Source: Candidatus Binataceae bacterium
GTDB taxonomy: Bacteria > Desulfobacterota > Binatia > Binatales > Binataceae
Length of the DNA: 64,000 bases
Assembly: GCA_015478645.1 (NCBI GenBank)
Contig: JADMIL010000004.1
Location: forward strand, 34,555 to 98,554
Direction: 5' to 3'
Position numbers and translations under genes: made by a program. Below the pieces are notes generated by a model that was not told the DNA's origin, made no database searches, and was given only the letters and a program-made list of their open reading frames with translations. Shown here piece after piece: positions 803-19,348 of the stretch; position 1 is the first letter of the stretch; the number at the start of each line of letters is the position of its first letter.

Positions 803-848
803 CTATTATAGACGTGCCAGCATCCTGGTCGGGTAAAGGAGAATAGTA

Positions 849-1121
849 ATGCGTGTGACTTTCATCTGCGTGCGAGCCGAACGGCGCAACGAATGGCATC
901 CTGGTTATCTGGCGCATTCCGCGCGGCTGGTGCCGGTAGTCGATGGAGCACCGCCAGCGCGCGAATACTTTGTCGAGCCGCCAGTGGGCGTGATCGAACT
1001 GAGCGGCCTCGCGGCCGAACATTTCACGGTTGGGCGGACGTACGTGGTGCACTTCGACGAAGTAGGGCTTGACGAAAGCCGCGCTTCCCGCCGCAATGGT
1101 CCGCCGGCCGGGCGCGAGTAG
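849..1121 (+). CDS. Hypothetical protein (90 aa)
   Basis: Good RBS (AAGGAG) upstream; fills the gap between gp36 and gp37. Confidence 0.6.
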   Translation: MRVTFICVRAERRNEWHPGYLAHSARLVPVVDGAPPAREYFVEPPVGVIELSGLAAEHFTVGRTYVVHFDEVGLDESRASRRNGPPAGRE

Positions 1122-1130
1122 GAGGTATCG

Positions 1131-1970: not shown

Positions 1971-2184
1971 TTACTCGGACGAAGGTGTGACGCAGTATCG
2001 TCGACGCTGACTGCACTCAGCGCACCGCACAATAGACAGAAGCTTGGCGGGAAGACGCTCATAACCGCACAGTTTAACACTCGAGTAAATGAGTAAAGTC
2101 ACCGCTAGCACCGGCGTCAACATCTATATGCATCGTCACGCGCAACAGACCACCGTTCCGCGGTGCGAATCAGAGGTAAACTAA

Positions 2185-3930
2185 ATGCCCGCATCGTTTT
2201 TGCATGGTGTCGAAGTAATCGAGGTCACGAGCGGTCCGGCACCGATAACCGTGGTCAAGTCGTCAGTCGTCGGTCTGATAGGCAGCGCGCCCCTGTGGTC
2301 TTCGAACGCCCCACCGTCGGTGAACTCGCCAACGCTGGTGAGTTCCGCGCAGCAGGGAGCAGTCTATGGTCCGGCGGTGCAGGGCTACACGATTCCATAT
2401 GCGCTCAACGCTATCCTTGCACAGGGAGCCGGCCAGGTGATCGTGGTCAACGTATTTGACCCGACGAGCCACTTCAGCGATATCGTCGCGTCACAAACGT
2501 TCAGCGCGGCCGGCGCGATCAATTTGGGCCACATGGGCATCTCCAATCTTTCGGTGTTGCCGACTAACACGACCGCGGTGAGCGCGGAATCACATACCTT
2601 TGGCGGAACGCCGGCAACGATCGAGCTTGCGCACGGAAATGTGCAAGCTTCGTCGATGGTAGTGACGAGTAATCCGGCGGGAACGACATACGTCCAGGGT
2701 ACTGACTATTTGGCTGACGCGCGTACGGGACTTATTACCCGGCTTTCGAGCGGAGCGCTAACGGCAACACAAGCCGTCCTCGTCGGCTACAGTTACTATT
2801 CCGGAACGCCGTATAGTGCCAGCACCGCGTACGCCGCCGACCTGGTCAACGGTGTAGTAACGTTGGTGGCGGGAGGAGCGATCGCGGCCGGAGCAACGGT
2901 AATCGCGTCATTCAGCTACGCGGACCCGAGCAAGGTTCAAGACTCGGACATTATCGGCACGGTCGGCTCCGGTGGCTATACGGGTTTGCAGGCGCTGCTG
3001 ACGACGTACGGCACAATGGGCTTTTTCGCGAAACTGTTGATCGCGCCAGGATACTCACAGAACGGGGACGTCGCGACGGCAATGCTGGCGACGGCGGCCA
3101 GTATACGGGCGATGGCACTGCTCGACGCTCCGCCGGGAACCGCGGCGGCGGCGGTGATCGCAAATCGGGGCGTCGCGGGCAATGCGTTCGACACGAGTTC
3201 GACCCGGGCGATCCTGTGTTATCCGCAGGAGACGTTTTACGATATTGGATTGGTGCCCACCGGAGTGACCTTGAACGGAACGACGCCGGTTCGGCTGGCC
3301 GCAAATCAAAACTCGATAGCACCCTATTCTCAGTGGGTAGCGGGGGCGATGGCCGCAAAGGACCTGTCCAAGGGCTATTGGTGGTCGCCATCGAACACCA
3401 TGGTGAATGGGATTCTTGGTCCGGATGTTACGCTCTATGCATCGATCCTCGATGCGTCATCGGATGTGAACAATCTCAATGCGGCGGGAATTGTGACAGC
3501 CTTCAACGCTTTCGGCACCGGCCTCAGAGTGTGGGGCAACCGGACGGCCGGTTTTCCGGACGTGACGACACCCGATAACTTTATCAGCGTGCGCCGGACC
3601 ATGGATGTAATTGAGGAATCGGTGGAGCTGTCGATGCTGCAGTTTATCGACCAGCCTATTAGCAATGCACTGATTACCGCGATCCTGGCAAGCGCAAACG
3701 CGTTTATACGAACGCTTATTCAACGCGGCGCACTGGTCGCGGGATCGGCCAGCTACAATCCAGCGGAGAATCCGGCCAACCAGATTACAGCAGGCCAGTT
3801 GGTATTCGATATTGATGTGATGCCGCCGCCGCCGGCAGAGCGACTGACCTTCAACGTCTATATCGACTCGACTTTGCTCAGCCAGCTAGGAACAGCGAGT
3901 GCGTTGACCAGTACGACGCTCAACGCATAA
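2185..3930 (+). CDS. Contractile tail sheath protein (P2 FI-like)
   Basis: FLHGVEVIEV..G..PI..V.S.V.GLIG, LIAPG, GYWWSPSN, G.RVWGNRT, FISVRRT.D.IEES, PPPPAERLTF. Confidence 0.95.
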   Translation: MPASFLHGVEVIEVTSGPAPITVVKSSVVGLIGSAPLWSSNAPPSVNSPTLVSSAQQGAVYGPAVQGYTIPYALNAILAQGAGQVIVVNVFDPTSHFSDIVASQTFSAAGAINLGHMGISNLSVLPTNTTAVSAESHTFGGTPATIELAHGNVQASSMVVTSNPAGTTYVQGTDYLADARTGLITRLSSGALTATQAVLVGYSYYSGTPYSASTAYAADLVNGVVTLVAGGAIAAGATVIASFSYADPSKVQDSDIIGTVGSGGYTGLQALLTTYGTMGFFAKLLIAPGYSQNGDVATAMLATAASIRAMALLDAPPGTAAAAVIANRGVAGNAFDTSSTRAILCYPQETFYDIGLVPTGVTLNGTTPVRLAANQNSIAPYSQWVAGAMAAKDLSKGYWWSPSNTMVNGILGPDVTLYASILDASSDVNNLNAAGIVTAFNAFGTGLRVWGNRTAGFPDVTTPDNFISVRRTMDVIEESVELSMLQFIDQPISNALITAILASANAFIRTLIQRGALVAGSASYNPAENPANQITAGQLVFDIDVMPPPPAERLTFNVYIDSTLLSQLGTASALTSTTLNA

Positions 3931-3996
3931 TCGAACAGAGACTAACGGCGGACGCAGAACCAGCCGTGTCCGCATGAAAGCGGCAAGGATGATGCG

Positions 3997-4515
3997 ATGG
4001 ACATTTCGGTAAATCGTATAACGAATGCGAATATTTATATGGACGGCGCGGGTTTGCTTGGAAGGGCTGAAGAAGTCGAGGTGGCACAGCCGCGCCATCG
4101 CATGGTCGACCATAAGGGCCTGGGGATGGCAGGGACGGCCGAATTCTGGGCGGGGGTCGACAAGCTCGAAGCCAAGATCAAGTGGGCATCGCTGTATCCG
4201 GAAGCGTTAACGGCGGCGGCCAGTCCCTTTACGTCGCATTCGTTCCAGGTTCGCGGCAGCCTCGAGCAATACACCAGCCAGGGAAGGAGCGCCGAGCTGC
4301 CAGTGGTCTATTTGATGACGGCGGTATTCAAGGATGCGGGCGCCTTTCGCTTCCGGCAGCACGAGAACGTGGATTCCACGTCCAGCCTTACGGTCTACCA
4401 TTCGGAGCTCTACGTAGCGGGAACGCAAATCCATTTGTACGATGTACTCGCCAATATATACGTGGTGAACGGTGTCGATCAGCTAGCCGTATTTCGTGCG
4501 AACCTCGGCGGATGA
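3997..4515 (+). CDS. Major tail tube protein (P2 FII-like)
   Basis: NANIY.DG...LG.AEEV, GLGM.G......G.DKLEA, ...YDV..NIY.VNGVD.LA..R.NLG; follows the sheath. Confidence 0.92.
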   Translation: MDISVNRITNANIYMDGAGLLGRAEEVEVAQPRHRMVDHKGLGMAGTAEFWAGVDKLEAKIKWASLYPEALTAAASPFTSHSFQVRGSLEQYTSQGRSAELPVVYLMTAVFKDAGAFRFRQHENVDSTSSLTVYHSELYVAGTQIHLYDVLANIYVVNGVDQLAVFRANLGG

Positions 4516-4604
4516 TTATTTTGCGCTCAACTTTAAGCAGAATTAACTAGCGAGTAAGGCATTCGGAATTATAGTTATAGCCGCGGGGCGCGAGAGCAGA
4601 TGAT

Positions 4605-4676
4605 GCGGCGGCGGAAACACGTGTTTTCAGTTCATCCGGTGCGACGGTTCGAAGCGATAGGCATTTCCGCCGCCGC
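4605..4676. repeat. 13-bp perfect inverted repeat in the tube-chaperone spacer (possible RNA stem)
   Basis: GCGGCGGCGGAAA (4605-4617) / TTTCCGCCGCCGC (4664-4676). Confidence 0.6.
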
Positions 4677-4738
4677 GCGCATTTCGGCCCCGACGCCGGC
4701 GGGGCGCCGCAAGCAAAAAAGAAGAGGAGTTGCATTCG

Positions 4739-5068
4739 ATGGCCGATGAAGTGAAGGCGATTATGCTTCCATCTGGGAGAGCTGCGACAATACGCAAGGG
4801 AAAAGGGCGCGACCTGATGCGCGCGCATCGCGCAGTCGCAGGAAATCAGGAGCCTATGGCCGTCTCGTTCGCACTAGTGGCCGAATTGGCCCAAGTGGAA
4901 GGAAGACCGATCGTTTACGAGGACGTGTTGGCGATGGACCTGGAGGACGTGCTTGTGCTCGAAGCTGAAGTAATGGGGGCGGCTGAGGGCGAACCAAATT
5001 TTACCGTGAGGCCGGAGGACCGCACCGAAGAATCGAACTACCTGGAGCGGCCGCGGTCGTCAGATTAA
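4739..5068 (+). CDS. Tail assembly chaperone (gpE/gp41-like), 0-frame product
   Basis: Position after the tube; LPSG..ATIR...GRDL..A, ..EDV..MDLED motif; RBS GAGGAG 9 nt before ATG 4739. Confidence 0.85.
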   Translation: MADEVKAIMLPSGRAATIRKGKGRDLMRAHRAVAGNQEPMAVSFALVAELAQVEGRPIVYEDVLAMDLEDVLVLEAEVMGAAEGEPNFTVRPEDRTEESNYLERPRSSD

Positions 5069-5184
5069 TCGGATTTGGTTTCGCACTGACGGAGCTGGAT
5101 TCCATGACGCTGGAGGAACTCGAGTACTGGGCGCGAACCACCGCCGAATACTTACTGGCTAACGAACACGGGCACCAAGGATGA
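4996..5184 (+). CDS. -1 frameshift extension of the tail chaperone (gpE+E'-like)
   Basis: In-frame slippery heptamer A AAT TTT at 4996-5002; the -1 frame is open to TGA 5182-5184 and encodes ..GFALTELDSMTLEELEYWARTT.., a gpE'-like motif. Confidence 0.8.
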   Translation, partial: KFYREAGGPHRRIELPGAAAVVRLIGFGFALTELDSMTLEELEYWARTTAEYLLANEHGHQG

Positions 5185-5224
5185 TGAGCGGACGACGATC
5201 ATGAATGCGCGAGGAAGCGAGGGT

Positions 5225-5521
5225 ATGAGTAAGCGGTTATACGCAGGCAACTTGCATTTTGACTTAACCGACACGGCGCTCCAGCAGGTATTTGGGCACG
5301 TCGGCGGAGTTGAGAAGGCAGAGGTAATTAAGGACCGGGCGACCGGCCTGTCGCGCGGTTTCGGCTTCGTCGAAATGATGACGATCGAAGATGGCGAAGC
5401 GGCGATCGCGGAACTGGATGGTGCCGACGTAATGGGGCGGGTATTACGGGTGGCGCCGGCCAAGCCGCACGAGCCCCCGCGGCGTGGGCGATCAGCCGCG
5501 TACGAAACAGGAATAGAATGA
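5225..5521 (+). CDS. RNA-binding protein, single RRM domain
   Basis: RNP2 LYAGNL, RNP1 RGFGFVEM, AI.ELDG....GR.LRV..A; stop overlaps next start (ATGA). Confidence 0.93.
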   Translation: MSKRLYAGNLHFDLTDTALQQVFGHVGGVEKAEVIKDRATGLSRGFGFVEMMTIEDGEAAIAELDGADVMGRVLRVAPAKPHEPPRRGRSAAYETGIE

Positions 5522-6792
5522 AGTCGCGGGCCGACATGGTGCATGCGTCACGCTTTGCAGATCACGTCGTCGTGCGGTCGGCGACGATAGCGGGGCGTAT
5601 CGGCGGACTAGCGGAGTCCACTCGCAAATTGTCGCTTGAATCGACCGAGACCGCACACGGGATCCTCGCGGCTGCGCGCAGGAGCCGCAGGGTGCCAATC
5701 GGCCGGTCGAGTAATCCCTCGAGCAGCGATAGTTTGATCAGCCGCGTCGAGGACATCCCGACTTGGCGCCAGGCGCCAGCGCGCATTCGCGATCTTGAAT
5801 CGAATGTAAATAGCCTTATCAGTGCCGCGGGACTAGCCACAGTCACCGAACGAGTCGGTTCCGTGATAGGCGATATCGTGACTCATACGACCCGAGCGTC
5901 GCTGGCGATGCCGTCATGGTTATCGATTAATAAGATGGAAAGAGCGTCTCGCAGGTCATTGAATGCCCAGTCGACCGAACCTCAACAACGCAATCGATTA
6001 AACAATACTTTCGTCGACACCCGCAGCAGCTCCGCCGCAATCCATACTAACTACCTCGGCTTGAGCGCACCTGACGTTATGTCGCCCGCAGGACCCGCAC
6101 GGGATCAGCCCGCGGTGTATCCGTCGTCGTCAGGGTTCGATCCGAAGCGTCCAAATGGATATAACGCTCCCCGCTGGGGCGAGATGGGCTTTATACCTCT
6201 GACGGCAGCGAATACCCAAGGAGTTGCGCGCCACCGCAGTTTTTCGACGCATCGGAATCGGCTTACTACCCTAGAAGCAGACGCCCGCAATAGAGGCCTT
6301 GTGCGCGCCGCGCAACGCTCTGCAAGCGACGCTTTCGACACTACCTACACGAGATCAAAGACGTCACCCGCAGCGAATGTCGAGAACGCTGCGCGTCACG
6401 CTGCGCGACTTGGCTCGGCTGTTTACGCAAAAGGCGGTGCGCCGCACGGAAATGGAGTCTCTTCAGACCGCGAATGGAGAAGCAATCGGCTGCGAAGGAA
6501 CCGCGTTGAGGCTTGGGACCTCGATAATCGGTTTGCACGAGATTACCGAAGGCCGAACGAATATTCGAGCGGCGGCGCGAATGACTATCTGAAGGGAAGA
6601 GAACGCAGCGCGTCGGGATACCGTGGCGAGAGCGTTCCGCTAATCGTGAACTACTCGCCCACGGTGACGCTGTTTGACGCCCCGCCTGGGGAGATGGAGC
6701 GACGGTTGGTTGAAGCAATCGGCCGCCATGGCAGCGACCTGGTGCGCGTGCTGAACCGAGAGATGGAAAAGCGGCGACGCGCGGGATTCTAG
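5518..6792 (+). CDS. Atypical short protein in the tape-measure position
   Basis: Between chaperone and gpU; C-terminus (IVNYSPTVTL..D.....L......L..VL..EME.RRR..F) resembles TMP C-termini; the rest is R/S/A-rich and low complexity. Confidence 0.6.
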   Translation: MKSRADMVHASRFADHVVVRSATIAGRIGGLAESTRKLSLESTETAHGILAAARRSRRVPIGRSSNPSSSDSLISRVEDIPTWRQAPARIRDLESNVNSLISAAGLATVTERVGSVIGDIVTHTTRASLAMPSWLSINKMERASRRSLNAQSTEPQQRNRLNNTFVDTRSSSAAIHTNYLGLSAPDVMSPAGPARDQPAVYPSSSGFDPKRPNGYNAPRWGEMGFIPLTAANTQGVARHRSFSTHRNRLTTLEADARNRGLVRAAQRSASDAFDTTYTRSKTSPAANVENAARHAARLGSAVYAKGGAPHGNGVSSDREWRSNRLRRNRVEAWDLDNRFARDYRRPNEYSSGGANDYLKGRERSASGYRGESVPLIVNYSPTVTLFDAPPGEMERRLVEAIGRHGSDLVRVLNREMEKRRRAGF

Positions 6793-6861
6793 CGGGCGGA
6801 CCTCGTAACACGGCCACCGGCCAAGTTAAGGCATACTTCGAGGCCATAACTAAAGGATTGA

Positions 6862-7515
6862 ATGATGTTCGCGGTACTCGGCGAAATAGTCTTTGAAGTT
6901 CTAAGCTCACCCGAAAAGCTGGAATACACGCGCGACTGGGATTACGCGGAACTTCGTGTGATCGAGGATCGTCCGCGGCTTCAGTGGATAGCGGATAACC
7001 TGGCGTTGATCACGATCGATTTGCGCTTTCACGCCAGCTTTACCGTGCCCGAACTACAACTGGCCGCACTGATTGCGGCGGGTGACGATCACATTGCACG
7101 CCCGCTGGTGTTCGGAAACGGAATTCATCGCGGTTACTTTGTCGTGACTTCACTTCGAACGATTGCGACGCAGATGACGGCGGCCGGCGACCTTGCGGGA
7201 ATTACCGTGCGGACGACGCTTAAGGAATGGGCACTGAGTATTGAAATAGATCCGGGGGCGCCGCCCATCGCTCTGTTCCCCCTGCTTGGCGTGGTAGCGG
7301 CTCCGGCGGGAACTTCGACCGCATTGGTGTCATACCCCGGAGCAGGTGGAGTCGCTGAGACGCTCAGCGCATTGATCCCGGTTTACGCATCACCGGCAAT
7401 TCCCGCTCCAGGAGTCTCACCGATCCTCGACAACCCGGCCGCGACCGGCGCGGGATCGCCGCATCTGGTAGCCAATGATGTACCGCCGGGCACAATAGTG
7501 CGGGCGCCAAGATGA
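6862..7515 (+). CDS. P2 gpU-like tail tube initiator with Pro/Ala-rich extension
   Basis: MFA.LG.I.F, YAE...I..RPRLQW....L..I.I...FH..F..P, PLVFGNG...G.FV. Confidence 0.85.
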   Translation: MMFAVLGEIVFEVLSSPEKLEYTRDWDYAELRVIEDRPRLQWIADNLALITIDLRFHASFTVPELQLAALIAAGDDHIARPLVFGNGIHRGYFVVTSLRTIATQMTAAGDLAGITVRTTLKEWALSIEIDPGAPPIALFPLLGVVAAPAGTSTALVSYPGAGGVAETLSALIPVYASPAIPAPGVSPILDNPAATGAGSPHLVANDVPPGTIVRAPR

Positions 7516-7585
7516 ATCGCCTCGCTCGGTTAGCAGGTTTTCCGACTGACAGTCATACTCTGCAAGTACTGAAGAAGACAACTCA

Positions 7586-7813
7586 ATGGTCCAAGCACAA
7601 TTCCTGACACACGTAACAATCCGGGGCGAGCGCTGGGATTCGCTTGCCTGGAAATACTACGGCGACGCCACCCTGTTTTCACCGATCGTGATGGCTAATC
7701 CGCAAATCGCGGTCGAACCGGTCTTCGAGGCAGGCCTGGTGATTGGTGTTCCGATATTACAGGTGAGCCAGGCGACCACCAGCGACCTGCCTCCGTGGAA
7801 ACGAACTTCATGA
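7586..7813 (+). CDS. Tail protein X (LysM-like)
   Basis: T..GERWD.LAWKYYGD......I..ANP.......F.AG..I.VP....LPPWK. Confidence 0.9.
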   Translation: MVQAQFLTHVTIRGERWDSLAWKYYGDATLFSPIVMANPQIAVEPVFEAGLVIGVPILQVSQATTSDLPPWKRTS

Positions 7814-8109
7814 TGAAGCGGCTGCGGAACTTGTGCGTGCGGTTTTTTCCAACGCGGCCGTTATGCGCGAAATGCGTGTCCGGACGCATGTCGCATCCGG
7901 TGTATTGTAAGGGCGAAGCGTGTGCTCATCGTCGGCAGAGAACCGTGTATTCATTACACGAGCATTTATACCTTCAATGCAGTAGATGTGGATACGTAGT
8001 CTGGTACCCGTGCGCTGATCATCGAGACATTGATCGGCATAAACGCAAGCGGTGTGCCGCTTCGCCGCTACTGCTAATAATCCGGCAGCGCTGTAAGGAT
8101 GCCCACTAG
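7810..8109 (+). CDS. Small Cys/His-rich putative zinc-binding protein
   Basis: ATGA overlap with the gpX stop; stop abuts gpD ATG; CxxC, CxxxxC, HxH, CxxC, C. Confidence 0.55.
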   Translation: MMKRLRNLCVRFFPTRPLCAKCVSGRMSHPVYCKGEACAHRRQRTVYSLHEHLYLQCSRCGYVVWYPCADHRDIDRHKRKRCAASPLLLIIRQRCKDAH

Positions 8110-9129
8110 ATGAGCGGCGCGAGTTTTTTTGCGGTGCGATCTCCGAGTTGGGTATTAACCTACCTTGGGGTCAACATCACGGCCGACATTTCTTCGATGG
8201 TCCTGTCGATCATCTATACGGACGCGCTGCAGGGCGAATCCGGACGCCTAGAAATTGAGATCGAGGATCATGACAAGCGCTGGCAGGGCCCCTGGTACCC
8301 GACTGAGGGAGATGCTGTCAATTTACTAATCGGCTATGCGGGCGAACCTATGCTGCCTTGCGGAGACTTTCAGGTCGATGAACTCGGGCTGGGCGGGATA
8401 TCATCGGGGCCGCCGGACGTGTTCCACTTGCGCTGTCTGGCCGCGTATATTACGCCGGCGATGCGCACACTCAATAGCGCGGGATATGAAAATCAGACAC
8501 TGCTTCAGATCGCGGGAACGATTGCAGGAAAATATGGATACAGCGTTGTCGGCGCGCCGGATGCGCTAAACCTATCGTTTGCACGGGTTACGCAGCGACA
8601 AGAGACCGACGTGGCGTTTCTCAATCGGCTTGCGCAAACGCACAATTACAATTTTACAATACGTGGTAGTCAACTCGTCTTCTATTCGCGCGCGACTCTC
8701 GAGGCCGCGGCACCGGTTGCGACAATCACGCGCAGCGACATAGTCACTTTCAACTTCACGAACAAGACGCATCGAGTTTACATGGGGGCGCAAGTCTCAT
8801 ACCAGGATCCAGCGACCAAGCAGTTGCTGACACAGCGATCAGTCGCCGCACCGACGACGCCCACCGGCGATACTCTAAAGCTTGCACGGCGTTGCGAAAA
8901 CCAGCAGCAGGCACTCCTTAAAGCGCAAAGCGCGCTGCATCGCGCCAACATGAAGCGCGCGACGGCTCAGCTCACAACAATTGGTGCGACGATTTACGTG
9001 GCAGGCAACAACGTCAATGTCGCGGGTTTTGGCGTCAATGACGGCGTCTACTTGATCGAAACGGCGCGTCATCGATTGACGCGGGCGACAGGCTATACGA
9101 CGGAACTAGAAGCGCGGCGCGTCGATTGA
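8110..9129 (+). CDS. Baseplate hub protein (P2 gpD/Mu gpP-like)
   Basis: IT.DIS..V.SI.YTD...G.S..LEI...D....W...WYP..GD, G.F.VDE, Q..ETD..FL.RLA, GYTT..E. Confidence 0.9.
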   Translation: MSGASFFAVRSPSWVLTYLGVNITADISSMVLSIIYTDALQGESGRLEIEIEDHDKRWQGPWYPTEGDAVNLLIGYAGEPMLPCGDFQVDELGLGGISSGPPDVFHLRCLAAYITPAMRTLNSAGYENQTLLQIAGTIAGKYGYSVVGAPDALNLSFARVTQRQETDVAFLNRLAQTHNYNFTIRGSQLVFYSRATLEAAAPVATITRSDIVTFNFTNKTHRVYMGAQVSYQDPATKQLLTQRSVAAPTTPTGDTLKLARRCENQQQALLKAQSALHRANMKRATAQLTTIGATIYVAGNNVNVAGFGVNDGVYLIETARHRLTRATGYTTELEARRVD

Positions 9130-9292
9130 TGGATCGGGGCGGCCATGGCAGTGGGGTAATATCATGATCACGCCCAGGCAGCAGGCATGGACCGTCGCGG
9201 ATGATCCGTCTGCACGGTTAAGCGCACACATCGGTACGGCACCTTTGCACACAACGATCTCCGCAACCCGACGCGGCTGACGAGAGGCCCCT

Positions 9293-9820
9293 GTGTTTCG
9301 AGTTGGCATAGTAAAGAGTCTGGATGCGACGAATGCCCGGGTGCGGGTGGTGTTTCCCGATCGCGATCAGATGCAGAGCTGGTGGCTCCCGGTAGTTTTT
9401 GCGAAGACGCAAAACGATAAAGAGTACTGGCTGCCGGATGTGGGCGAGCAAGTGGTCTGTGTAATGGATGAATACGACGAAGACGGCGCTGTGCTCGGAG
9501 CGATTTATTCGAGTGTGGATCGGCCGCCGGTGGCAAGCGCCGACAAGTTGCACTGGTCGGCAAAAGACGGGGCGGTATTCGAATACGATCGGGCGGCTCA
9601 CGCGTTCGCAGTGAGTATTCCCACAGGCGGAACGATAACAATAAGCGCGAACGGCGCGAATATCGCGATCGACGGCTCGGGCGACGTGTTAATCGCGGCC
9701 GCCGGAGAGATCACTCTCGCCGGCGGGGGGCCCGCTGTTGCACGCGTCGGAGATATAACGACTTGTCCCGCGGGTTCGGGACAGATAGTCAGTGGCAGCG
9801 CAAAGGTAAATGCCGGATGA
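9293..9820 (+). CDS. Baseplate central spike (gpV-like) with a C-terminal PAAR-like motif
   Basis: R.GIV..D....RVRV.FPD......S.WLPV, YWLPDVGEQV.C..D, G.VLGAIYS, DG...EYDR; ends ARVGD...C....G.I.SGS..V.AG. Confidence 0.9.
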   Translation: MFRVGIVKSLDATNARVRVVFPDRDQMQSWWLPVVFAKTQNDKEYWLPDVGEQVVCVMDEYDEDGAVLGAIYSSVDRPPVASADKLHWSAKDGAVFEYDRAAHAFAVSIPTGGTITISANGANIAIDGSGDVLIAAAGEITLAGGGPAVARVGDITTCPAGSGQIVSGSAKVNAG

Positions 9821-9925
9821 ACCCTCGACCGCTTTTTTCGCAGGGTTGGCGAACTTGCCAAAACGCAAGAGATGATCGTCGCGATGATCACGGTGTCAAC
9901 GATGTGTAAGGCGGGTAAATAGGCG

Positions 9926-10369
9926 ATGAGTGTCGGCGCAATCACCCTGGCGGACATCACGTCTGCCGACTGGTCGTTGGCCCTTGATCAATCCGGAATG
10001 CCGGGTACAGGGCTGGGCAACGTGGTCCAAGGTGTGGCGGACGTTAACCAATGTATCCGAATCATTCTGACGACTCCGCGCGGCAGCGACCCGCTGCGGC
10101 CGACGTTTGGAGCGGACATCTGGCAATACGTAGACTATCCAGTCAACTCGGCGATACCCGCGATTGTACGCGAGGTAACCCAGGCGATAGCACTCTGGGA
10201 ACCGCGGGTCACACTGCTGTCGGTTAGAGCAACGCCAGCGCAGGATGATACCGCGCAGTCGGGTGCGCATCTGGATATTGCGATCACCTGGCAGCTCAAA
10301 TTGAGCACCAAGAACGGAAAAATAATGACCACGCCAAACAGTACGACGGTGACTATACCGACCGCTTGA
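9926..10369 (+). CDS. Baseplate wedge/sheath initiator gpW/gp25-like
   Basis: DV.QCI.IIL.TP.GSDPLRP.FG.D...Y.D.P, AI..WEPRV. Confidence 0.92.
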   Translation: MSVGAITLADITSADWSLALDQSGMPGTGLGNVVQGVADVNQCIRIILTTPRGSDPLRPTFGADIWQYVDYPVNSAIPAIVREVTQAIALWEPRVTLLSVRATPAQDDTAQSGAHLDIAITWQLKLSTKNGKIMTTPNSTTVTIPTA

Positions 10370-10432
10370 ACGGCCTGGAGTCAGGCTGAGTTCATCGGGA
10401 GACGCGCCGATGACGGAATGGAGTGAAAGCTG

Positions 10433-11602
10433 ATGGCTGGTGGTATTCCGCTGCTGCCGCCGCCGGTGTTCGTCGACGACGCCGACGGCCTGGACCCCAA
10501 CCTGATCCTCGCCGACATGGTGTCGGCCTTTCAGACCGCCGCAGGCCGTACATTACAGCCTGCACAGGTCGAGCGATTGCTGATCAATCTGTATGCGTAT
10601 CGTGAATCGCTGATACGCAACGCAATTCAATACGCGGGGCAGCAGAATCTGCTGGCCTATGCCGCATTCCCGATGCTCGACTACCTCGGCCAGCTACTGA
10701 GTATTATCCGGCTGGGCGCACAGGGAGCCACGACGACGCTCCAGTTTACATTGGCCAACCCGCTCAGTATCGCCTATGTGATTGCGGCCGGCACACAGGT
10801 CGGGACCATTGACGGTCAATTTGTTTTCGCCACAATCGAGAGCCTTACGATCCCGGCCGGCTCAATCTCAGGTTCCGTGCAGGCCACCAGCACCACGCCG
10901 GGGACGGGCGGTAATGGCTATCTGGCCGGGCAGGTGAACGTCCAGATTAGCCCGAGTGTATTGATCTCCGCGGTGACCAACTCCGACACCAGCGCGGGCG
11001 GCGCGTCGCCTGAAACCGATGAGCACTTGCGTGCCCGGATCCAGGCGGCGCCCAATCAGTTCAGCACGGCGGGTCCGGAAGGCGCCTACCGTTTTTTTAC
11101 GCTTAGCGCCGACCCGTCGATTATTGACGCGCAGGTCGTGACGCCGGCGCCGGGACAGGTGGTGGTTTACGTACTGACCGGTCCGATCACGATCCAGCCG
11201 GCGCCGTCGCCGAATCCGGCGGCGATCGCGAGTTCCGGGCTGCTGGCGAAAGTGGCCATTGCACTCAGCGGCGACAGCGTGCGGCCATTGACTGACACGG
11301 TGAGTGTAATGGCGGTGACCGAGACTGACTATCAAATCTCCGGCACGATCACCATCTACTCCGACGCCGATCCGGCGGCCACGATGGCGGCGGCGAACGC
11401 CGCTGCCCAAAGCTATGCGATCGCGTTGGCCTCGCGTATCCAGCGCGACATCGTGCCCAGCCAGATTATCGAGGCGCTGTCAGTTACAGGCGTTTATGAG
11501 GTGGTGCTGACTTCGCCAAGCTACACTCAACTGCAACCCGGGCAATGGGCTAATTGCATCGCGGTGACGCTCAGCCAGGCAACCAGCTCGCAATTGAGTT
11601 GA
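10433..11602 (+). CDS. Baseplate J-like protein
   Basis: GRTL.PAQVERLLI...AYRE, ETDE.LR.RI..AP..FS.AGP.GAY.F, VRPLTD.V.V. Confidence 0.93.
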   Translation: MAGGIPLLPPPVFVDDADGLDPNLILADMVSAFQTAAGRTLQPAQVERLLINLYAYRESLIRNAIQYAGQQNLLAYAAFPMLDYLGQLLSIIRLGAQGATTTLQFTLANPLSIAYVIAAGTQVGTIDGQFVFATIESLTIPAGSISGSVQATSTTPGTGGNGYLAGQVNVQISPSVLISAVTNSDTSAGGASPETDEHLRARIQAAPNQFSTAGPEGAYRFFTLSADPSIIDAQVVTPAPGQVVVYVLTGPITIQPAPSPNPAAIASSGLLAKVAIALSGDSVRPLTDTVSVMAVTETDYQISGTITIYSDADPAATMAAANAAAQSYAIALASRIQRDIVPSQIIEALSVTGVYEVVLTSPSYTQLQPGQWANCIAVTLSQATSSQLS

Positions 11603-11725
11603 TGAGAATAGGGCTTAGCGGGTGGCAAATAATACCTCGTTATTCGATTACCTAACAGGCATTATCGCCGTGGCTGACAAGGCGCACGACGAAGTGTTTC
11701 AACCCGACAACACGGTCGAGCAGAA

Positions 11726-12562
11726 ATGGCGCAACTGACTATCCAACCTTCGATCAACGATATGCGCAGCAACACGCTGCTCGATCTTATTGAGCGGATG
11801 GATGCGCTCGACCTGACGCCAATTCTAGTCTATCGGCTGAACTCCACTCCGGATAGCGCATTGCTGCTGCTGGCGTGGCAGTTCGACATGCTTGGACCGC
11901 AATGGCAATTGGGCGCGCAGTTGACGGAGTCGGTCGACGCGCTAACCGCGATCGATCCGCTGATTGACATCGACACACTTAATTCGATCAATAGCATCCT
12001 CGGTCCGTCGGATTACGATTCGCTGCGAGCGCTGCTCAAGGTGGCGATTCCGTTGCATCGTACGCGCGGTACGCCGTATGCGATCAAGACGGCGCTGGCG
12101 TCGCTCGGTTGGGGAAGCGTTACGCTGGAGGAGGGTCAGTCGTCGTGGGGCGGTACGCAGTATCCGAGCGACCAGGGGTGGGCGGTGTTCCGCGCGCTGA
12201 TCAATCTCGCCAGCGGGCAGAGCGTTGACAGCGGCGCCGCGACGCGGGCGATCGCCACAATCAATTTTTTCAAACCGGTACGCGCGTGGCTGGACTCGAT
12301 ATGGTTTATCGGGGCGCCGATCGCTGACGGCGCGCCGGCGCCAGCCGATTTTGTTCTGTCAATTTTTATGCAGGGCGATCCGGTGCCGGAACCGGGAGAT
12401 ATCATCAACGCGCCGGGCTGGCCACTTGCGGATCTGAAGACTATCGCACCCCTTTACAACGATCACTTTACGCATGTCGGAATTACTTACGGCGCTAATC
12501 AGCCAGCGGTTGCGGACTCTGGTGTAATCGTGAACGGCGCCGCGATCGCCGCGCGCGCGTAA
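11726..12562 (+). CDS. Tail protein I (P2 gpI-like baseplate wedge)
   Basis: L..LAWQF, R.L.K.AI.LHR..GTP.AIK.AL..LG, WA.FR, KP.R..L. Confidence 0.88.
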   Translation: MAQLTIQPSINDMRSNTLLDLIERMDALDLTPILVYRLNSTPDSALLLLAWQFDMLGPQWQLGAQLTESVDALTAIDPLIDIDTLNSINSILGPSDYDSLRALLKVAIPLHRTRGTPYAIKTALASLGWGSVTLEEGQSSWGGTQYPSDQGWAVFRALINLASGQSVDSGAATRAIATINFFKPVRAWLDSIWFIGAPIADGAPAPADFVLSIFMQGDPVPEPGDIINAPGWPLADLKTIAPLYNDHFTHVGITYGANQPAVADSGVIVNGAAIAARA

Positions 12563-12599
12563 CGACGGAGCGAACCGTCAAAGCCAACGAGAGGGACCA

Positions 12600-13244
12600 A
12601 TGCGACCATCAGGGATTGTGACGCTATACAAGGGCGGGCGCCTCGTCTGGACGGGGCACAACCTTTATGTGAACGCGGGGCTGCCGCCGCTGGCTAATCT
12701 GATCGCGGGCGTGACCACGGGACAGTACGTTGCCGCGATGGGCTTCGGTTCCGGTGCGACCGCGCCGGCGGCGACCGATACAGGTCTGACCGCCTCGCCG
12801 ACGTACTATAATGCGATCGGATCGCACAGCTTTCCTTCGTCGGGAAGTGTGCAATTCAATTACTCACTGCTGGCGACCGATTACGGCGCAGCGGGCCTGA
12901 CAATTCAGGAACTCGGGCTCTTTGCCAATGCCAGCGCGCTGGCGTTGCCCGCGGCTATCGGGACGGCCAATCCCGCGTGGAACGCTGCGACTGCGTACGT
13001 CGTCGGCAACCTGGTGACCGATAGCAACGGCAATCTCCAGCGCTGCACGACCCTTGGGACCAGCGGCGGCAGCGCCCCGACGTGGTCAAGTATCGTCGGC
13101 GGGAGCACCTCGGATGGCTCCGCGGCATGGACACTGGTGGCGCTGCATACCGCGCCGGGACCGATTCTGGCGCACGTCGCGGTGCCGGCCTTCGCATATA
13201 CCGGAACGGGAAACTATTCAGGGACATGGACGCTTACTTTCTAA
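12600..13244 (+). CDS. Tail collar/fibre-attachment protein with an inserted CBM5/12-like module
   Basis: NL.VN.G...LA.L..G, G.G.G..AP...DT.L, I.ELGLF; insert W.A.TAY.VG..V....G....C...GTSG...P.W......DG...W. Confidence 0.7.
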   Translation: MRPSGIVTLYKGGRLVWTGHNLYVNAGLPPLANLIAGVTTGQYVAAMGFGSGATAPAATDTGLTASPTYYNAIGSHSFPSSGSVQFNYSLLATDYGAAGLTIQELGLFANASALALPAAIGTANPAWNAATAYVVGNLVTDSNGNLQRCTTLGTSGGSAPTWSSIVGGSTSDGSAAWTLVALHTAPGPILAHVAVPAFAYTGTGNYSGTWTLTF

Positions 13245-13351: not shown

Positions 13352-13924
13352 ATGGCGACATTGATCGATAGTCCCGAATTCAGCGCAAACGAGATTTACC
13401 AGATCCAACAGACCGATCCGGTCGAAGGGGCGGCCACTGGAGCGAGCTTCAATGGCGCCGGAGTCAGCAACCAGCCGCATCAGCAACTCGCCAACCGCAC
13501 CGCGCTGCTCAAACAGCGGCAGGATACGAATATCGCGAATATCGGTGTGCTGCAGGACTTCATGGCTGGGTTCATCGGTTCATTACAGACTAACGGCTAC
13601 CTGCAGATACCGATTGTGGACGTCCTGCGAGGGCCGATTACAGCGATAATTCAGTGGGGCTATTACGCATTGCCGCAGGTAGCCATTGCGTTAGACACCG
13701 AGTACTCAGTGACCTGGCCGCTGCGGTTTCCAAACACAATCCTGATCCCGCCGCTGGCGACAAATGTGTATTTCCAGACCAGCGGCCGAAATACCGCGGC
13801 GTCGGTGGTGACTTATAGCGAGCGCGGCGCGACCTTCGTGCTGGACGTACCCAACAGCAGTTACGGATCGTTCGCAGGCAACGAGAAATCCAATGGATTT
13901 TCGTGGCTTGCGATCGGTTTCTAA
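13352..13924 (+). CDS. Short tail-fibre protein (fibre N-terminal anchor plus gp53-like domain)
   Basis: IYQI...DPVEG....G.SN....QLANRT..LK; NGY..., IIQWG, V.WP..FPN, ..W.AIGF end. Confidence 0.78.
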   Translation: MATLIDSPEFSANEIYQIQQTDPVEGAATGASFNGAGVSNQPHQQLANRTALLKQRQDTNIANIGVLQDFMAGFIGSLQTNGYLQIPIVDVLRGPITAIIQWGYYALPQVAIALDTEYSVTWPLRFPNTILIPPLATNVYFQTSGRNTAASVVTYSERGATFVLDVPNSSYGSFAGNEKSNGFSWLAIGF

Positions 13925-14012
13925 GCGCGCTTAGCGGGTCGAATGGTGCAGATGCTCCACGGCGGCGAGGGACATCCAGCTGATCGCCCGCCGAGCAGGA
14001 CATGTAAAAATA

Positions 14013-17000
14013 ATGATGAGATTTCCATCGATGATACGAACTATACGAAGCGCGGGGGCGGGGCGGAAGCGGCTTGCGACCCTGATTTTTGCGGGCTTGA
14101 TTACGGCCGCCGCAGTCGCAATCGCGCAGGCGCAGTACCGGCCGATTCCGAACTACATTGGAATCGGCGCCGGGCAGGAATTCCGCAACGACATCAATAA
14201 TCATCTTTCCGGCGTTACACCGATAGCGCCGCGGATAGTGAGTATTCCGTTCGCGCAATTGCCAGCGGAGCAGGACGGCCAGGAGTATTGGGTGCCCAAT
14301 GCCACGCAGGCTAATCCTTGCACCGCCGGCGGATCAGGGGCGCTCGCGGTCGGGATACGGGGCCAGTGGAATTGCCTGTCCGGCGCGTCGGGCACGGCGC
14401 TCGGCGGCTTTCCGCTGACGGCGAACGTCAGTGCGGCGAGCCATAGTATCCAGAACTTGGCGGTGAATACGGCGACCGGTGATGCGCTCTCGCAGGGACA
14501 GTCGCACCTCAATGAGCTGGCACCGGCGCAGAACGTCTACAGCATGGGCAACAACAGGCTGCAATGGGTGCGCGGGGGCGCGCAGGCTCTCGACGCATTG
14601 AGCTATGGACAATCGGGCGCGCAACTCAACGGGCTGGATCTCAATAACAATCAGTTGGCTAATCTTTCGGCGGCGTCGGCCAGCGGACAGGCCTTGGCTT
14701 ACGCGCAGAATGGCGCGCAATTGACGACGAATCAGGCGGCGGGGGCGCTGGTCTCGTCGAGCCAGAACAACGCGAACGCCACGTCGGTGGCGATCAATGC
14801 ACCGGCGGGGATCGTCGCCGGGAATGCGCTGGTGGCCAATATCTTCTGGGTCTCGCCGACTGGCACGTTCACGCCGCCGGCCGGATGGACGCAGATTCGC
14901 GCGGATGCGACCAGTGTGAGCTATGGCTTGACGGCTGGGGTGTTCTGCAAGGTCGCGACGGGCAGCGAGCCAGCGAATTACACGTTCGGCTTTTCGGTCG
15001 CGCAGAACGTGGTCGGATCGATCAGCCAGATCAGCGGGATCACTTGTGCGACTGACGGAAGTTCCGTGAGTGCGGGCGGCGCGAATAGTATTACCGCGCC
15101 GGCGTTCGCCACGACGCATAGCAGCGACTACGTGGTTGCGCAGGGGTCGTCGTACAACCCGGCTTCTTTTACCGCTTCGATCGGCGGTCGGCTGATTTCC
15201 GACGGGAACGCCAACGGCGATCTGTTGGTCACCGGACGTATCAATCCGGGCGTAAACGTCCCGGCGGTTGTCTATTCGGGGACGTTGGCGAACGTCTCGC
15301 TGGCCTCGCAAGTCGCCTTTGTCACTGCGACGACGATTCAATCGCTCCCGGTGCTGAGCGGGCAGATCGGCGCGTCGATTCAATCGCTGACCGCAAGCAA
15401 TAGCCAGGTGCTCAACGTGCAGGCGGCGCCGTACAATGCGCAGGCCGACGGCAACACCGACGACGGTCCAGCGATTCAGCAGGCGATTTACGACGCCGAA
15501 AGAGCGGTGCCGCCAACGTTTCCTAATCCGAATCTCTATCCGGGAGGCTTCGGGGCCGTCTATCTGCCACGTTCGGCGACGGGCAAATGCTACGACATCG
15601 GCAAGCCGATCCGGGTGGCGTCGGGGGCGATCGAGATCAAGGGCGACGACGGCACGTGTATCCAGAAGCTGTATGCCGGGCCGACGATTATCAACGAAGG
15701 CTGGGGCATCGACTTTCTCCAGTACGGTCCGGCGCTGGTCGGGACGGGGCAATCGCTGAGCACGGTTGGCTATTTAAGCAGTAATACTAAAAACGGTTTC
15801 ATCGATCTTGCGCAGTTGCTCGACACGACGCAGATCAATCTTGCGACTCGCTTTGCCAGCGGCTTCGATATTGAGTTCTGGATGGAGCAGACGACTACGT
15901 TGGGGGGCAACGTTTTTCGCTCGAATCCGAATAATCCTGGCGGCGGCAACGGGATGGTTTCGATCACCGCGTCCGGCGGCGCCGGAAATCCGGTCGCGGC
16001 CAGCGTGAACACCACAGGCGGATTAGTCAGTCTGGCCGCGTGTCCTTCGCAGACCCAAAACACCGCCTACGACATGGCGCTCGATTGGGACGGCACGACC
16101 TACCGGCTGTTTCAGGGCGGCGTGCTGTGCTCGAGTGTGGCGTCGGCGAATGCGCCGGTGCTTGGGCCATTTGAATCGATGCAGCTACCGGCGCTCGGCG
16201 GTTTTGACTATTGGATGGCGGGGGGCAATATAAGTAGCCCGTTTCAGGGCTATCTCGACTCGATGAGATTTGAATCGGTCTCGGAGCATGTCGCGAACTA
16301 CACGCCGCCGACCGCGCGCTTTGCGGCCGACGGCAACACGGTGCTGCTGCTCAACTGGGATGCGTCGCTCGATGGAACGCAACTCGGCTATACGCAGAAC
16401 GCGGCGCCGGTCTATTTGCCGGTGTTGGGCGGCGGGCAAAATACGATCGGCACGTCGATGCATCTGCATAATCTGGAGCTTTGCGCCGACGATGGCCAAA
16501 TGGCGCATCGCGGTGACGGCCTGTTCTCGCAGTGGGCGGTCGGTTCGGAAATCGACCACGTCAGTTGCTCGAATGCGGTCTATGCGGGGCTGAACTTCTA
16601 CAACAATGACTTCGGCACGATTGAGCATAACAACACGGTGCTGAGCGGGATGCTCGGAATCCTCCACGGCGTCGCGTGGAATGGCGCGCGCGCCTACGAC
16701 GATGCGATGGATTCTCAGTCAATTGCGTGTGAGGAGACGGTTGGCGACGGCGGTGGCGGCTTCCACGATAGTCATCAGCTATGCACGAATCGCGGCACGC
16801 TGCGCTATTGCAAGATGTACATGGGGGAGGCGTTCACCGGGCAGGTGGACTTTGAGAATTGCGATCAGGAGGCGGGCGATAGCAACTTCGTCGCGTCGGA
16901 CCTGCTGCAAAACCCCCTGATTTCGCTGCAGTTCAATTCGCCCGATTTTGTCGGCGTCAGCGGCCATCCGTTTATCGAGCAGGACGGCGGCGGGATGGGA

Positions 17001-17762
17001 CCGACGCTGGTCGCGCCGCAATTCCAGGGTGGTGGGACGGCGATCATCAATTACGGGCAGACGCCGAGCGCTCCGGCGGTACTGATCAATCCGACACTGC
17101 CGGCCGGCGTGCCACTGTCGAACAACCTTTCCTTCGTCGAAGTGATTGGATCGAACTCGATTCTGAGCGCGCTGCAACTCCAATCGGTGCCGACCTTCAG
17201 CGCCGGACTGAACCATATCGCGGTCAATGCGATCGCCAATCCGGCGCCGGCGTCGATCGCCGTGGTCGGCGCGACCGGCAGCACCGGCTACGGACCGTAT
17301 TTCGTGGTCTGTCACGATATCAATGGCGGGGCGACGCTCCCGTCGAACTCGTCGAACACAGTGGCTAATGGGCCTGCGACGCTGAGCGGCAGTGACTATA
17401 TCCGAGTGACCTGGACGGGCCTGACCGGTTGCGCCTCGTGGGATGTTCTCAAGGGCAGCCTCACGACTTCAATCGCGACCGCGCTGCCGGCCGGCACGAC
17501 CTCGTACAACGATATCGGCGGATCGACCAGCGCGTACACGCCGCCCGTCCGCAACACTACTGGCGATATCAGTTATGGCTCTGTGCTGACCAGCGCCGGG
17601 ATGACCTATGCGAATCTGCCTTCTCCGACGGTCAACGGTGGGCGTTTCTATTGCAGCGATTGCGATCCGCCGGCGAATCCACCGGCCGCCTGTACGCATA
17701 CCGGGACCAAGACCGGCGCGTTCGCCGATGGCGTCAACGGCGTCTGGCTATGCGCACCGTGA
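14013..17762 (+). CDS. Large tail-spike/adhesin-like protein (neck repeats, pectate-lyase-like beta-helix, LamG-like insert) with a predicted signal peptide
   Basis: VLNV....Y.A.ADG.TDD..AIQ.AI beta-helix cap; FDIEFW..YRLFQGG..F.GYLD.MR LamG-like segment; N-terminal RKR-LATLIFAGLITAAAVAIAQA. Confidence 0.75.
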   Translation: MMRFPSMIRTIRSAGAGRKRLATLIFAGLITAAAVAIAQAQYRPIPNYIGIGAGQEFRNDINNHLSGVTPIAPRIVSIPFAQLPAEQDGQEYWVPNATQANPCTAGGSGALAVGIRGQWNCLSGASGTALGGFPLTANVSAASHSIQNLAVNTATGDALSQGQSHLNELAPAQNVYSMGNNRLQWVRGGAQALDALSYGQSGAQLNGLDLNNNQLANLSAASASGQALAYAQNGAQLTTNQAAGALVSSSQNNANATSVAINAPAGIVAGNALVANIFWVSPTGTFTPPAGWTQIRADATSVSYGLTAGVFCKVATGSEPANYTFGFSVAQNVVGSISQISGITCATDGSSVSAGGANSITAPAFATTHSSDYVVAQGSSYNPASFTASIGGRLISDGNANGDLLVTGRINPGVNVPAVVYSGTLANVSLASQVAFVTATTIQSLPVLSGQIGASIQSLTASNSQVLNVQAAPYNAQADGNTDDGPAIQQAIYDAERAVPPTFPNPNLYPGGFGAVYLPRSATGKCYDIGKPIRVASGAIEIKGDDGTCIQKLYAGPTIINEGWGIDFLQYGPALVGTGQSLSTVGYLSSNTKNGFIDLAQLLDTTQINLATRFASGFDIEFWMEQTTTLGGNVFRSNPNNPGGGNGMVSITASGGAGNPVAASVNTTGGLVSLAACPSQTQNTAYDMALDWDGTTYRLFQGGVLCSSVASANAPVLGPFESMQLPALGGFDYWMAGGNISSPFQGYLDSMRFESVSEHVANYTPPTARFAADGNTVLLLNWDASLDGTQLGYTQNAAPVYLPVLGGGQNTIGTSMHLHNLELCADDGQMAHRGDGLFSQWAVGSEIDHVSCSNAVYAGLNFYNNDFGTIEHNNTVLSGMLGILHGVAWNGARAYDDAMDSQSIACEETVGDGGGGFHDSHQLCTNRGTLRYCKMYMGEAFTGQVDFENCDQEAGDSNFVASDLLQNPLISLQFNSPDFVGVSGHPFIEQDGGGMGPTLVAPQFQGGGTAIINYGQTPSAPAVLINPTLPAGVPLSNNLSFVEVIGSNSILSALQLQSVPTFSAGLNHIAVNAIANPAPASIAVVGATGSTGYGPYFVVCHDINGGATLPSNSSNTVANGPATLSGSDYIRVTWTGLTGCASWDVLKGSLTTSIATALPAGTTSYNDIGGSTSAYTPPVRNTTGDISYGSVLTSAGMTYANLPSPTVNGGRFYCSDCDPPANPPAACTHTGTKTGAFADGVNGVWLCAP

Positions 17763-17815: not shown

Positions 17816-17858
17816 ATAAAAAAGAGGACAGGCAAGTGGAACCTCTGAGAGGTTCCAC
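17816..17858 (-). terminator. Hairpin between convergent spike and GT-C genes, probable terminator
   Basis: GTGGAACCTC-TGA-GAGGTTCCAC (17836-17858) with an A-run upstream (U-run on the minus strand, offset from the stem). Confidence 0.5.
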
Positions 17859-19319: not shown

Positions 19320-19348
19320 CGAGGAACCTTGCGGGGGACCACCGGGCG

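Follow-up and report, generated by a model that had tools for sequence, protein, structure and literature searches.

Introduction

The fibres and spikes borne by tailed phages, by tailocins and by gene transfer agents (GTAs) are assumed to fold and assemble inside the cytoplasm. To our knowledge, phage tailspikes carry no signal peptide and join the virion there. Here, we describe a spike-like gene in a 64,000-nt stretch of contig JADMIL010000004.1 (positions 34,555 to 98,554; hereafter, the window) from an uncultured soil bacterium of the Candidatus Binataceae. On the plus strand, it closes a contractile-tail module, directly behind a gene for a 190-residue fibre. It holds this last place in about 70 genomes of many genera, yet encodes a conserved export signal and conserved cysteine pairs predicted to form disulfides. 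We favor, with belief and doubt in about equal measure, the explanation that the spike is an exported, disulfide-bonded protein that binds or cleaves the producer's own envelope polysaccharide and is co-expressed with the particle.

Several exported proteins with a related layout or gene context have been described. The mosaic adhesive trimer (MAT) fibres of Bdellovibrio bacteriovorus have chromosomal genes and reach the cell surface by export; they have a Sec signal, an N-domain of ≈100–130 residues that is found family-wide, and a variable body resembling phage fibres or spikes, and their authors proposed that the N-domain binds a surface element (PMC10769870). Among described layouts, that of the MAT family is the closest to the spike reported here. 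In phage T5, the exported protein Llp is encoded directly 3′ of the receptor-binding gene (PMC9586334), and the endolysin of phage fOg44 is exported by Sec (PMC6116005). We did not find the present arrangement described among the top results of a literature search, nor did those results include a paper on a prophage, GTA or tailocin of the Binatia or Binatota.

The export signal of the spike

The spike open reading frame (ORF) runs from 14013 to 17762 on the plus strand and encodes 1249 residues, divided as follows:

14013..14132, plus strand: predicted Sec-type leader, residues 1–40, with a basic n-region, a hydrophobic core, A-Q-A and a predicted cleavage before Q41
14133..14417, plus strand: N-domain, residues 41–135 (IPNY..GAG..FRNDINNHLSG, then a cysteine module), from alignment; CxxC lost, C103 and C121 kept
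14418..14762, plus strand: fibre-type repeats (GDALSQGQSHLN-like), residues 136–250, from the sequence
14763..15392, plus strand: variable region, residues 251–460, the least conserved part of the mature protein (mean identity 0.27–0.44)
15393..17162, plus strand: residues 461–1050, a predicted beta-helix body into which a ConA-like lectin domain is inserted (PF12708 at residues 473–661, PF13385 at about 615–753)
17163..17759, plus strand: conserved C-terminal region, residues 1051–1249 (identity 0.55–0.70), ending in a second four-cysteine module, residues 1196–1248

A first-pass annotation, made from the sequence alone, had proposed a Sec-type signal peptide with a basic n-region, a hydrophobic core and cleavage between AQA and QY, and had suggested looking at its conservation in homologs. 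All three elements are found within residues 1–40: the first 23 residues have a net charge of +6, the best 12-residue window of the h-region starts at residue 24 and has a mean Kyte–Doolittle value of 2.48, and the A-Q-A of the c-region is followed by Q41-Y42. The proposed conservation is also borne out. An IPN[YF] motif occurs inside the first 140 residues in 39 of the 44 database homologs, and in 38 of these it is preceded by a hydrophobic core, defined as a best 12-residue mean Kyte–Doolittle value of ≥1.7; the sole exception, P0021, has a start that is cut short. The other five homologs comprise two with different leaders, two that are truncated at the start and one fusion (P0024, described below). 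An h-region cut-off of 1.8 was passed by 107 of 112 testable family representatives. Among 149 family proteins (the homologs plus 140 further cluster representatives), a small-x-small sequence followed by Gln lies at most 18 residues before the IPN[YF] motif in 146, with A-x-A in 99, and neither a Tat-like motif nor a lipobox was found in any of them.

Mean identity to the window protein was 0.34 for residues 1–50, which cover the leader and are among the least conserved parts, compared to 0.71 for residues 51–100 of the N-domain, which are the most conserved. The spike leader is, by sequence rules and conservation, on which the call rests, of the Sec/signal peptidase I type, kept in kind though its sequence varies. 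In a control comparison, no comparable leader was found in the 13 tail proteins and seven head or lysis proteins of the same element; the flanking host outer membrane protein (OMP) does carry one.

Within the open frame, no start codon precedes ATG 14013: the in-frame stop before it lies 26 codons upstream, ending at 13934. An AGGA is found 12 nt upstream of the ATG. An AGG-type motif 10–12 nt before the ATG was seen by eye in four of six orthologous loci. The alternative starts M2 and M7 would retain the whole leader. Only TTG 14097 would cut into the hydrophobic core, and this is the start used in the public gene call P0002, a protein of 1221 residues that begins at L29. Since this TTG lies within the hydrophobic core and has no Shine–Dalgarno (SD)-like motif before it, P0002 is probably a mis-call that hides the signal peptide. 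A true start downstream of the hydrophobic segment, the outcome that would have undone the first-pass prediction, is thus not what the locus indicates. The homologs P0017, P0021 and P0029 are likewise called too short in the database.

The spike contains 20 cysteines (1.6%), compared to 0–3 in each of the 13 tail proteins and 0–5 in the head and lysis proteins. Many paired cysteines had been pointed out in the mature protein, and the pairing is indeed seen to covary: across 23 aligned homologs, the cysteines fall into local pairs that are jointly present or jointly missing, and 14 are invariant. Both members of Cys 496/537 are found in 17 homologs and neither in six, while both members of Cys 933/950 are found in four and neither in 19. 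Cys 94/97, the CxxC of the N-domain (window 14292–14303), were jointly lost in the spike and its closest relative and are kept in 20 of the 23 homologs; the remaining N-domain pair, C103/C121, is retained in the spike. Such paired gain and loss is the pattern of structural disulfides, as expected outside the cytoplasm, and fits folding there.

It is conceivable that the protein is not exported at all, either because TTG 14097 is the true start or because the hydrophobic stretch stays on the cytoplasmic side, and that the spike is an ordinary tail spike assembled in the cytoplasm. The public call starting at L29 agrees with this, as does P0024, which has no leader yet keeps all of the body cysteines. 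However, the TTG lacks an SD-like motif, whereas the ATG in the open frame has AGGA upstream; the full leader is present in nearly all relatives; and covarying cysteine pairs would be unexpected in a cytoplasmic bacterial protein. We consider this explanation very improbable. Export of the spike out of the cytoplasm, as the first-pass annotation had it, is well supported by the conserved leader together with the covarying cysteine pairs. Presumably, the leader is cut before Gln41, and the spike crosses the inner membrane and folds there with about ten disulfides.

Domain organization of the family

The N-domain comprises ≈95 residues and nearly always starts 20–45 residues from the N-terminus. 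A profile of this domain matches 1986 cluster representatives at E ≤ 0.001; the count falls to 214 at E ≤ 1e-10 and to 90 at E ≤ 1e-30. All family members whose source is named are Candidatus Binataceae. The second half of the domain (14241–14378) is a four-cysteine module of ≈50 residues that recurs at the extreme C-terminus (17598–17756); comparison of the two modules with hhalign gave a probability of 95.3% (E 2.3e-8). Many of the 1986 weak profile matches seem to carry the four-cysteine module alone, just behind the leader. The family layout is a leader, a cysteine-bearing N-domain and swappable bodies predicted to be beta-helices.

Profile searches found no relative of the N-domain in Pfam, NCBIfam or the PDB, and the spike matched no family in NCBIfam and none in PHROGs. 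PDB matches to antibody light chains were spurious, and a Pfam match to DUF2793 (E 0.005, in one of 14 members) was rejected as chance. Comparison of the N-domain in the ESM Atlas gave values of 0.84–0.91 with viral clusters, among them 0.89 with the N-terminal domain of T4 gp9/10, which we regard as leads only.

The body was examined in an alignment of 26 sequences, consisting of the C-terminal piece of the spike and 25 homologs. PF12708 matches 21 of the 26 (best E 5.8e-9) and PF13385 matches seven. In the spike itself, PF12708 scores 17.5–18.5 bits, compared to a cut-off of 27 (E 0.0018–0.0037). When the family profile was searched against the PDB, it matched GH55 beta-1,3-glucanases (E 6e-10 and 1.4e-8) and pectin lyase (3e-6); the GH55 match (3eqn) covers chain residues 54–324 only, corresponding to the N-terminal beta-helix. 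The S74 chaperone-protease domain had no Pfam match. In a collection of 50,697 isolated phage records, no close homolog of the spike was found; eight records, mostly cyanophage structural proteins, are ≈31–41% identical to residues 666–796 alone. The earlier description of the protein as tail-spike-like is supported, at the level of sequence, by the PF12708 matches in the family, the GH55 profile match and the fibre-type repeats; in the spike itself, PF12708 scores below cut-off.

Position behind the tail-fibre gene

The spike gene is surrounded by the following features:

344..13244, plus strand: contractile-tail and baseplate module (gp36, gp37, sheath, tube, gpU, gpD, gpV+PAAR, gp25/W, J, I and ORF 12600–13244)
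13352..13924, plus strand: short tail-fibre gene, 190 aa, with a Gp53-like C-terminal domain (PF21882, E 2e-7; phrog_4209, E 4e-14)
13925..14012, plus strand: 88-nt gap between the fibre and spike genes with AGGA at 13997–14000; no terminator-like site in the scan
17836..17858, no strand given: 10-bp perfect hairpin before the convergent ORF 17937–19391 (minus strand); z −3.5 for a 191-nt stretch

The fibre protein has a conserved fibre N-terminus, and ORF 12600–13244 encodes an unassigned protein of 214 residues. The hairpin, which is flanked by an A-run ahead of it on the plus strand and by a T-run on the minus strand, is the likely end of the transcription unit. Because only a short gap without a terminator-like site precedes the spike gene and a hairpin follows it, we infer that the spike is co-transcribed with the tail genes as the last gene of the unit. 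The GC content of the spike gene (0.60–0.63) is closer to that of the tail genes (0.56–0.63) than to that of the right flank (0.63–0.72).

All genomes compared here are metagenome-assembled. The order J, I, ORF12600, fibre, spike is identical in six species-level genomes, and the same downstream host flank (d20765, d24102 and d26088) is found in five of them; in the sixth, the contig ends within the spike gene. Tail proteins in these six loci are 52–88% identical (66–81% for J, I, ORF12600 and the fibre), compared to 42–48% for the spike. The two minus-strand ORFs that follow the spike in the window, 17937–19391 and 19349–20506, gave no family match in Pfam, PHROGs or NCBIfam. An N-terminal membrane helix is found in the first. 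Both ORFs are missing at some orthologous loci, where the MscS-like gene (20765–23146) directly follows the spike.

The survey was extended to 150 genomes of the family, including the unpublished G017, G042, G044, G058, G071, G086 and G140. The N-domain was found in 99 and the fibre in 105; both were present in 97, the N-domain alone in two and the fibre alone in eight. Consequently, only two of the 45 genomes without the fibre contain the N-domain. Of the 122 N-domain matches, 70 lie on the same strand as the fibre gene and immediately follow it; they come from 69 genomes spanning many genera, and in 65 of these 70 the distance from the end of the fibre match to the start of the N-domain match, leader codons included, is at most 330 nt. 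Both genes are present but unlinked in 28 genomes. The first-pass annotation had held that its proposal would fail if the gene were unlinked in relatives: in this respect, the genes are adjacent in 69 of the 97 genomes that contain both, which sustains the proposal, and unlinked in the other 28, which does not.

Copies away from the tail genes

A second sample of 80 loci comprised 50 tail-linked copies, 13 copies beside a Wza/Wzc neighbor set (homologs of the small CarboxypepD_reg protein, Wza and Wzc from locus L009) and 17 in other contexts. Among the tail-linked copies, 48 of the 50 keep the leader, as judged by eye, and seven are shortened to 122–385 residues; this implies that the tail-linked copy is dispensable in some lineages. 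Leader, N-domain and body types are shared between the unlinked and the tail-linked copies. Body cluster A includes 18 tail-linked, 10 polysaccharide-linked and five other copies, and body cluster B includes 22 tail-linked and seven other copies. In the N-domain tree, tail-linked and unlinked copies interleave, and well-supported branches force at least five changes of context. Unlinked copies often come first in operons with Poly_export/SLBB (Wza) and Wzz/GNVR/AAA_31 (Wzc), or with Wzz and a flippase; the first position was shown at L009 and in one other type of locus. No tail genes were found within ≈9 kb of the unlinked copies. The fibre gene is the last of the tail cluster in two genomes.

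One genome, G121, has lost ≈27 kb of head and tail genes. A single contig (G121:C14:77000-95000) carries the amidohydrolase and two early ORFs, followed by an ORF12600 with a frameshift and by fibre and spike genes that are both intact; neither gpJ, portal nor capsid was found elsewhere in this genome, which is 65% complete. The frameshifts may result from sequencing indels, since the host amidohydrolase is also split there.

These observations bear on the possibility that the spike is today a host surface fibre or adhesin independent of the particle, namely a captured prophage spike that acquired a leader and an N-domain for anchoring and is now used in adhesion or matrix remodelling. Its position behind the fibre gene would then be a historical remnant, and its layout resembles that of the MAT fibres as described in PMC10769870. 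The changes of context on the N-domain tree, the occurrence of both body types in tail-linked and unlinked loci, the intact fibre and spike left by the head–tail deletion in G121 and the seven shortened tail-linked copies all agree with such a role. However, a particle-independent protein would be expected in some of the 45 genomes without the fibre, where it was found in only two, and the tight, same-strand place after the fibre gene is kept in 69 genomes. Moreover, no S74 domain was found by Pfam. We consider this alternative unlikely.

A fibre–spike fusion and a second phage-like element

P0024 is a metagenomic protein of 1176 residues in which the first 56 residues of the fibre, 93% identical to the fibre in the window, are joined in-frame to residues 135–1249 of the spike. 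It thus lacks the leader and the N-domain and keeps all of the body cysteines. The stretch of its body that was compared, just past the join, is nearly identical to P0016. P0024 is a singleton, one of 28 matches, on one 6.7-kb contig and with one member sequence, and is therefore suggestive only. No further fibre–spike fusion was found among the 28 matches, and none of the fibre matches in the 105 genomes lies in an open frame of more than 413 residues.

Body homologs also occur in three genomes that do not contain the particle. G001 and G031 are two genomes of genus g2, where the Mu-like particle is missing; in each, a PF12708/PF13385 protein adjoins an SU10-type capsid gene. In G031 (C1, ≈1,846,000–1,868,000, minus strand), a beta-helix/ConA protein of 1679 residues, which begins with a basic and then a hydrophobic, leader-like stretch, is encoded between the capsid and head–tail adaptor genes. 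This cluster, which includes TerL, portal, SU10-type capsid, head–tail adaptor and minor tail protein genes, is unrelated to the Mu-like element. On a short contig of G001 (C170), the capsid gene and a neighboring body match (open frame of 1379 residues) were seen. Leader-bearing spike genes thus seem to recur in two unrelated phage-like elements of the Binataceae.

We considered the possibility that the spike is exported, folds oxidatively in the periplasm and, after lysis, uses its N-domain to dock onto the short fibre's distal domain, to act as a polysaccharide-specific receptor-binding protein. The family combines a swappable body with an N-domain that is its most conserved part, an arrangement also seen in phage spikes whose attachment domain is conserved, and 97 of the 99 genomes with the N-domain also have the fibre, with the domain in only two of the 45 genomes without it. 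The particle's own fibre has only 190 residues. P0024 drops the C-terminus of the fibre along with the leader and N-domain of the spike, as expected if the two dropped parts were interacting adaptors, although it may be a random in-frame deletion or an assembly artefact. The PF12708/PF13385 protein beside the phage capsid gene in G001 and G031, leader-bearing in G031, also agrees with docking, and the recognition proteins of the gene transfer agent RcGTA are encoded at separate loci and bind capsule (PMC5026251, PMC10218006). On the other hand, the top results of our literature search gave no tailed phage or GTA that adds a Sec-exported protein to its virion. The copies at Wza/Wzc operons and the 28 genomes with unlinked copies need no particle, G121 retains an intact fibre and spike after deletion of its head and tail genes, and the likeness of the N-domain to T4 gp9/10 in the ESM Atlas (0.89) is a lead only. 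We regard docking as doubtful, though worth keeping in mind. In its broader form, Binataceae particles would be finished outside the cytoplasm, with a Sec-exported, disulfide-locked spike that clips onto the fibres at lysis, and the unrelated element of the G031 type would do likewise; this, too, we think improbable.

The Mu-like element

On the same contig, 5′ of the window, genes for a Mor-type late activator, a GH108 endolysin, a lipoprotein, TerL, a Mu portal, Mu protease I and a gpT capsid were found. The whole head–tail–lysis cluster occupies ≈20,600–52,300 of the contig (window 1–17762 plus 14 kb upstream) and is bounded by the host amidohydrolase and OMP genes. No transposase or integrase was seen in this cluster. 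A search for the Mu transposase (PF02914) gave no match in the genome itself and was uninformative, since the control genomes also failed to match. The capsid was found in 106 of the 150 family genomes and is 49–91% identical, with most matches at 74–91%; this distribution fits vertical inheritance of the element. The cluster may represent a domesticated, GTA-like particle of the Binataceae. In one 100%-complete genome of the same genus (G096:C12), portal, tail, fibre and spike genes are present, yet no capsid match was found at E ≤ 1e-10.

Discussion

The first-pass annotation had offered three fates for an exported spike: that it joins the particle outside the cytoplasm, tethers it to the envelope, or has been repurposed as a host adhesin or depolymerase co-expressed with the particle. 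The last of these fits best, on the basis that the same leader, N-domain and body occur away from the tail genes, and it underlies the explanation that we prefer, an exported, disulfide-bonded spike directed against the producer's own polysaccharide. The polysaccharide target is inferred from the PF12708, PF13385 and GH55 matches together with the copies near Wza and Wzc genes, and the co-expression with the tail genes from the gene arrangement. The spike would not be assembled in the cytoplasm, but would be delivered late in particle production to the producer's periplasm or surface, where it would bind or cleave the extracellular polysaccharide. The polysaccharide layer that the short fibres must cross or recognize would in this way be cleared or altered, resulting in easier release of particles and less re-adsorption to producer debris. 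The paralogues that head Wza/Wzc operons would do the same job in routine polysaccharide processing.

Several points weigh against this explanation. Of the two beta-helix domains of GH55 enzymes, the second holds the catalytic residues, and the match to the spike family is limited to the N-terminal one; PF12708 is below the Pfam cut-off in the spike. A spike of 1200 residues would have to cross the outer membrane. In P0024, the body is joined directly to the first 56 residues of the fibre, which suggests that the body can sit on the baseplate. A physical partner on the particle would account equally well for the conserved N-domain and for the near-perfect co-occurrence with the particle, which holds even where the genes are unlinked; the co-occurrence counts themselves come from related, non-independent genomes.

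If the preferred explanation is correct, the element ships a polysaccharide-directed spike into the envelope of its producer, which would constitute a new accessory function, comparable to that of receptor-masking proteins. If instead the particle is completed outside the cytoplasm, this would be new for tailed particles. In either case, the spike belongs to an undescribed family of exported proteins in an uncultured phylum, with 214 cluster representatives at E ≤ 1e-10.

Among the systems described, the MAT fibres share with the spike a signal peptide placed directly before an invariant N-domain, followed by a variable, phage-like body (PMC10769870). They differ in that MAT genes are not described there in a phage-like particle cluster, whereas the spike has a fixed place in the tail module, and in that many MATs have a C-terminal S74 chaperone-protease (PMC10769870), for which the spike gave no Pfam match. 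The spike also has a predicted PF12708 beta-helix with a ConA insert and cysteine modules at both ends. Tailspike depolymerases of the P22 gp9 type are large proteins with a beta-helix body, as is predicted for the spike, and, like it, have a conserved N-terminal part and are encoded at the end of the tail module next to a fibre gene (PMC6116005). Like them, the spike evolves faster than the rest of the tail; unlike them, it has a leader before the N-domain and about ten likely disulfides.

The particle itself resembles RcGTA, which is also a vertically inherited, phage-like particle with recognition genes at the main cluster or elsewhere and an extracellular polysaccharide target (PMC5026251, PMC10218006). 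For the fibres and head spikes of RcGTA, the abstracts of these reports name no export signal. With Vibrio RbmB, as presented in PMC11451748, and with GH55 glucanases (PDB 3eqn, 5m5z), the spike has in common its export, a pectin-lyase-like beta-helix, in the spike a predicted one, and a genomic link to polysaccharide loci; these enzymes have neither fibre repeats, nor the family N-domain, nor a phage-tail context, and the N-terminal helix of GH55 alone is matched. Llp of T5 and proteins of the Cor type resemble the spike in being exported, in adjoining the receptor-binding gene of a tailed phage and in acting on the producer's own envelope, but they are small lipoproteins that block a protein receptor, whereas the spike has 1249 residues and no lipobox and would act on polysaccharide (PMC9586334). 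By analogy, the spike would be a functional counterpart of such exported proteins of T5 and related phages (PMC9586334) and of the Sec-exported phage enzymes (PMC6116005).

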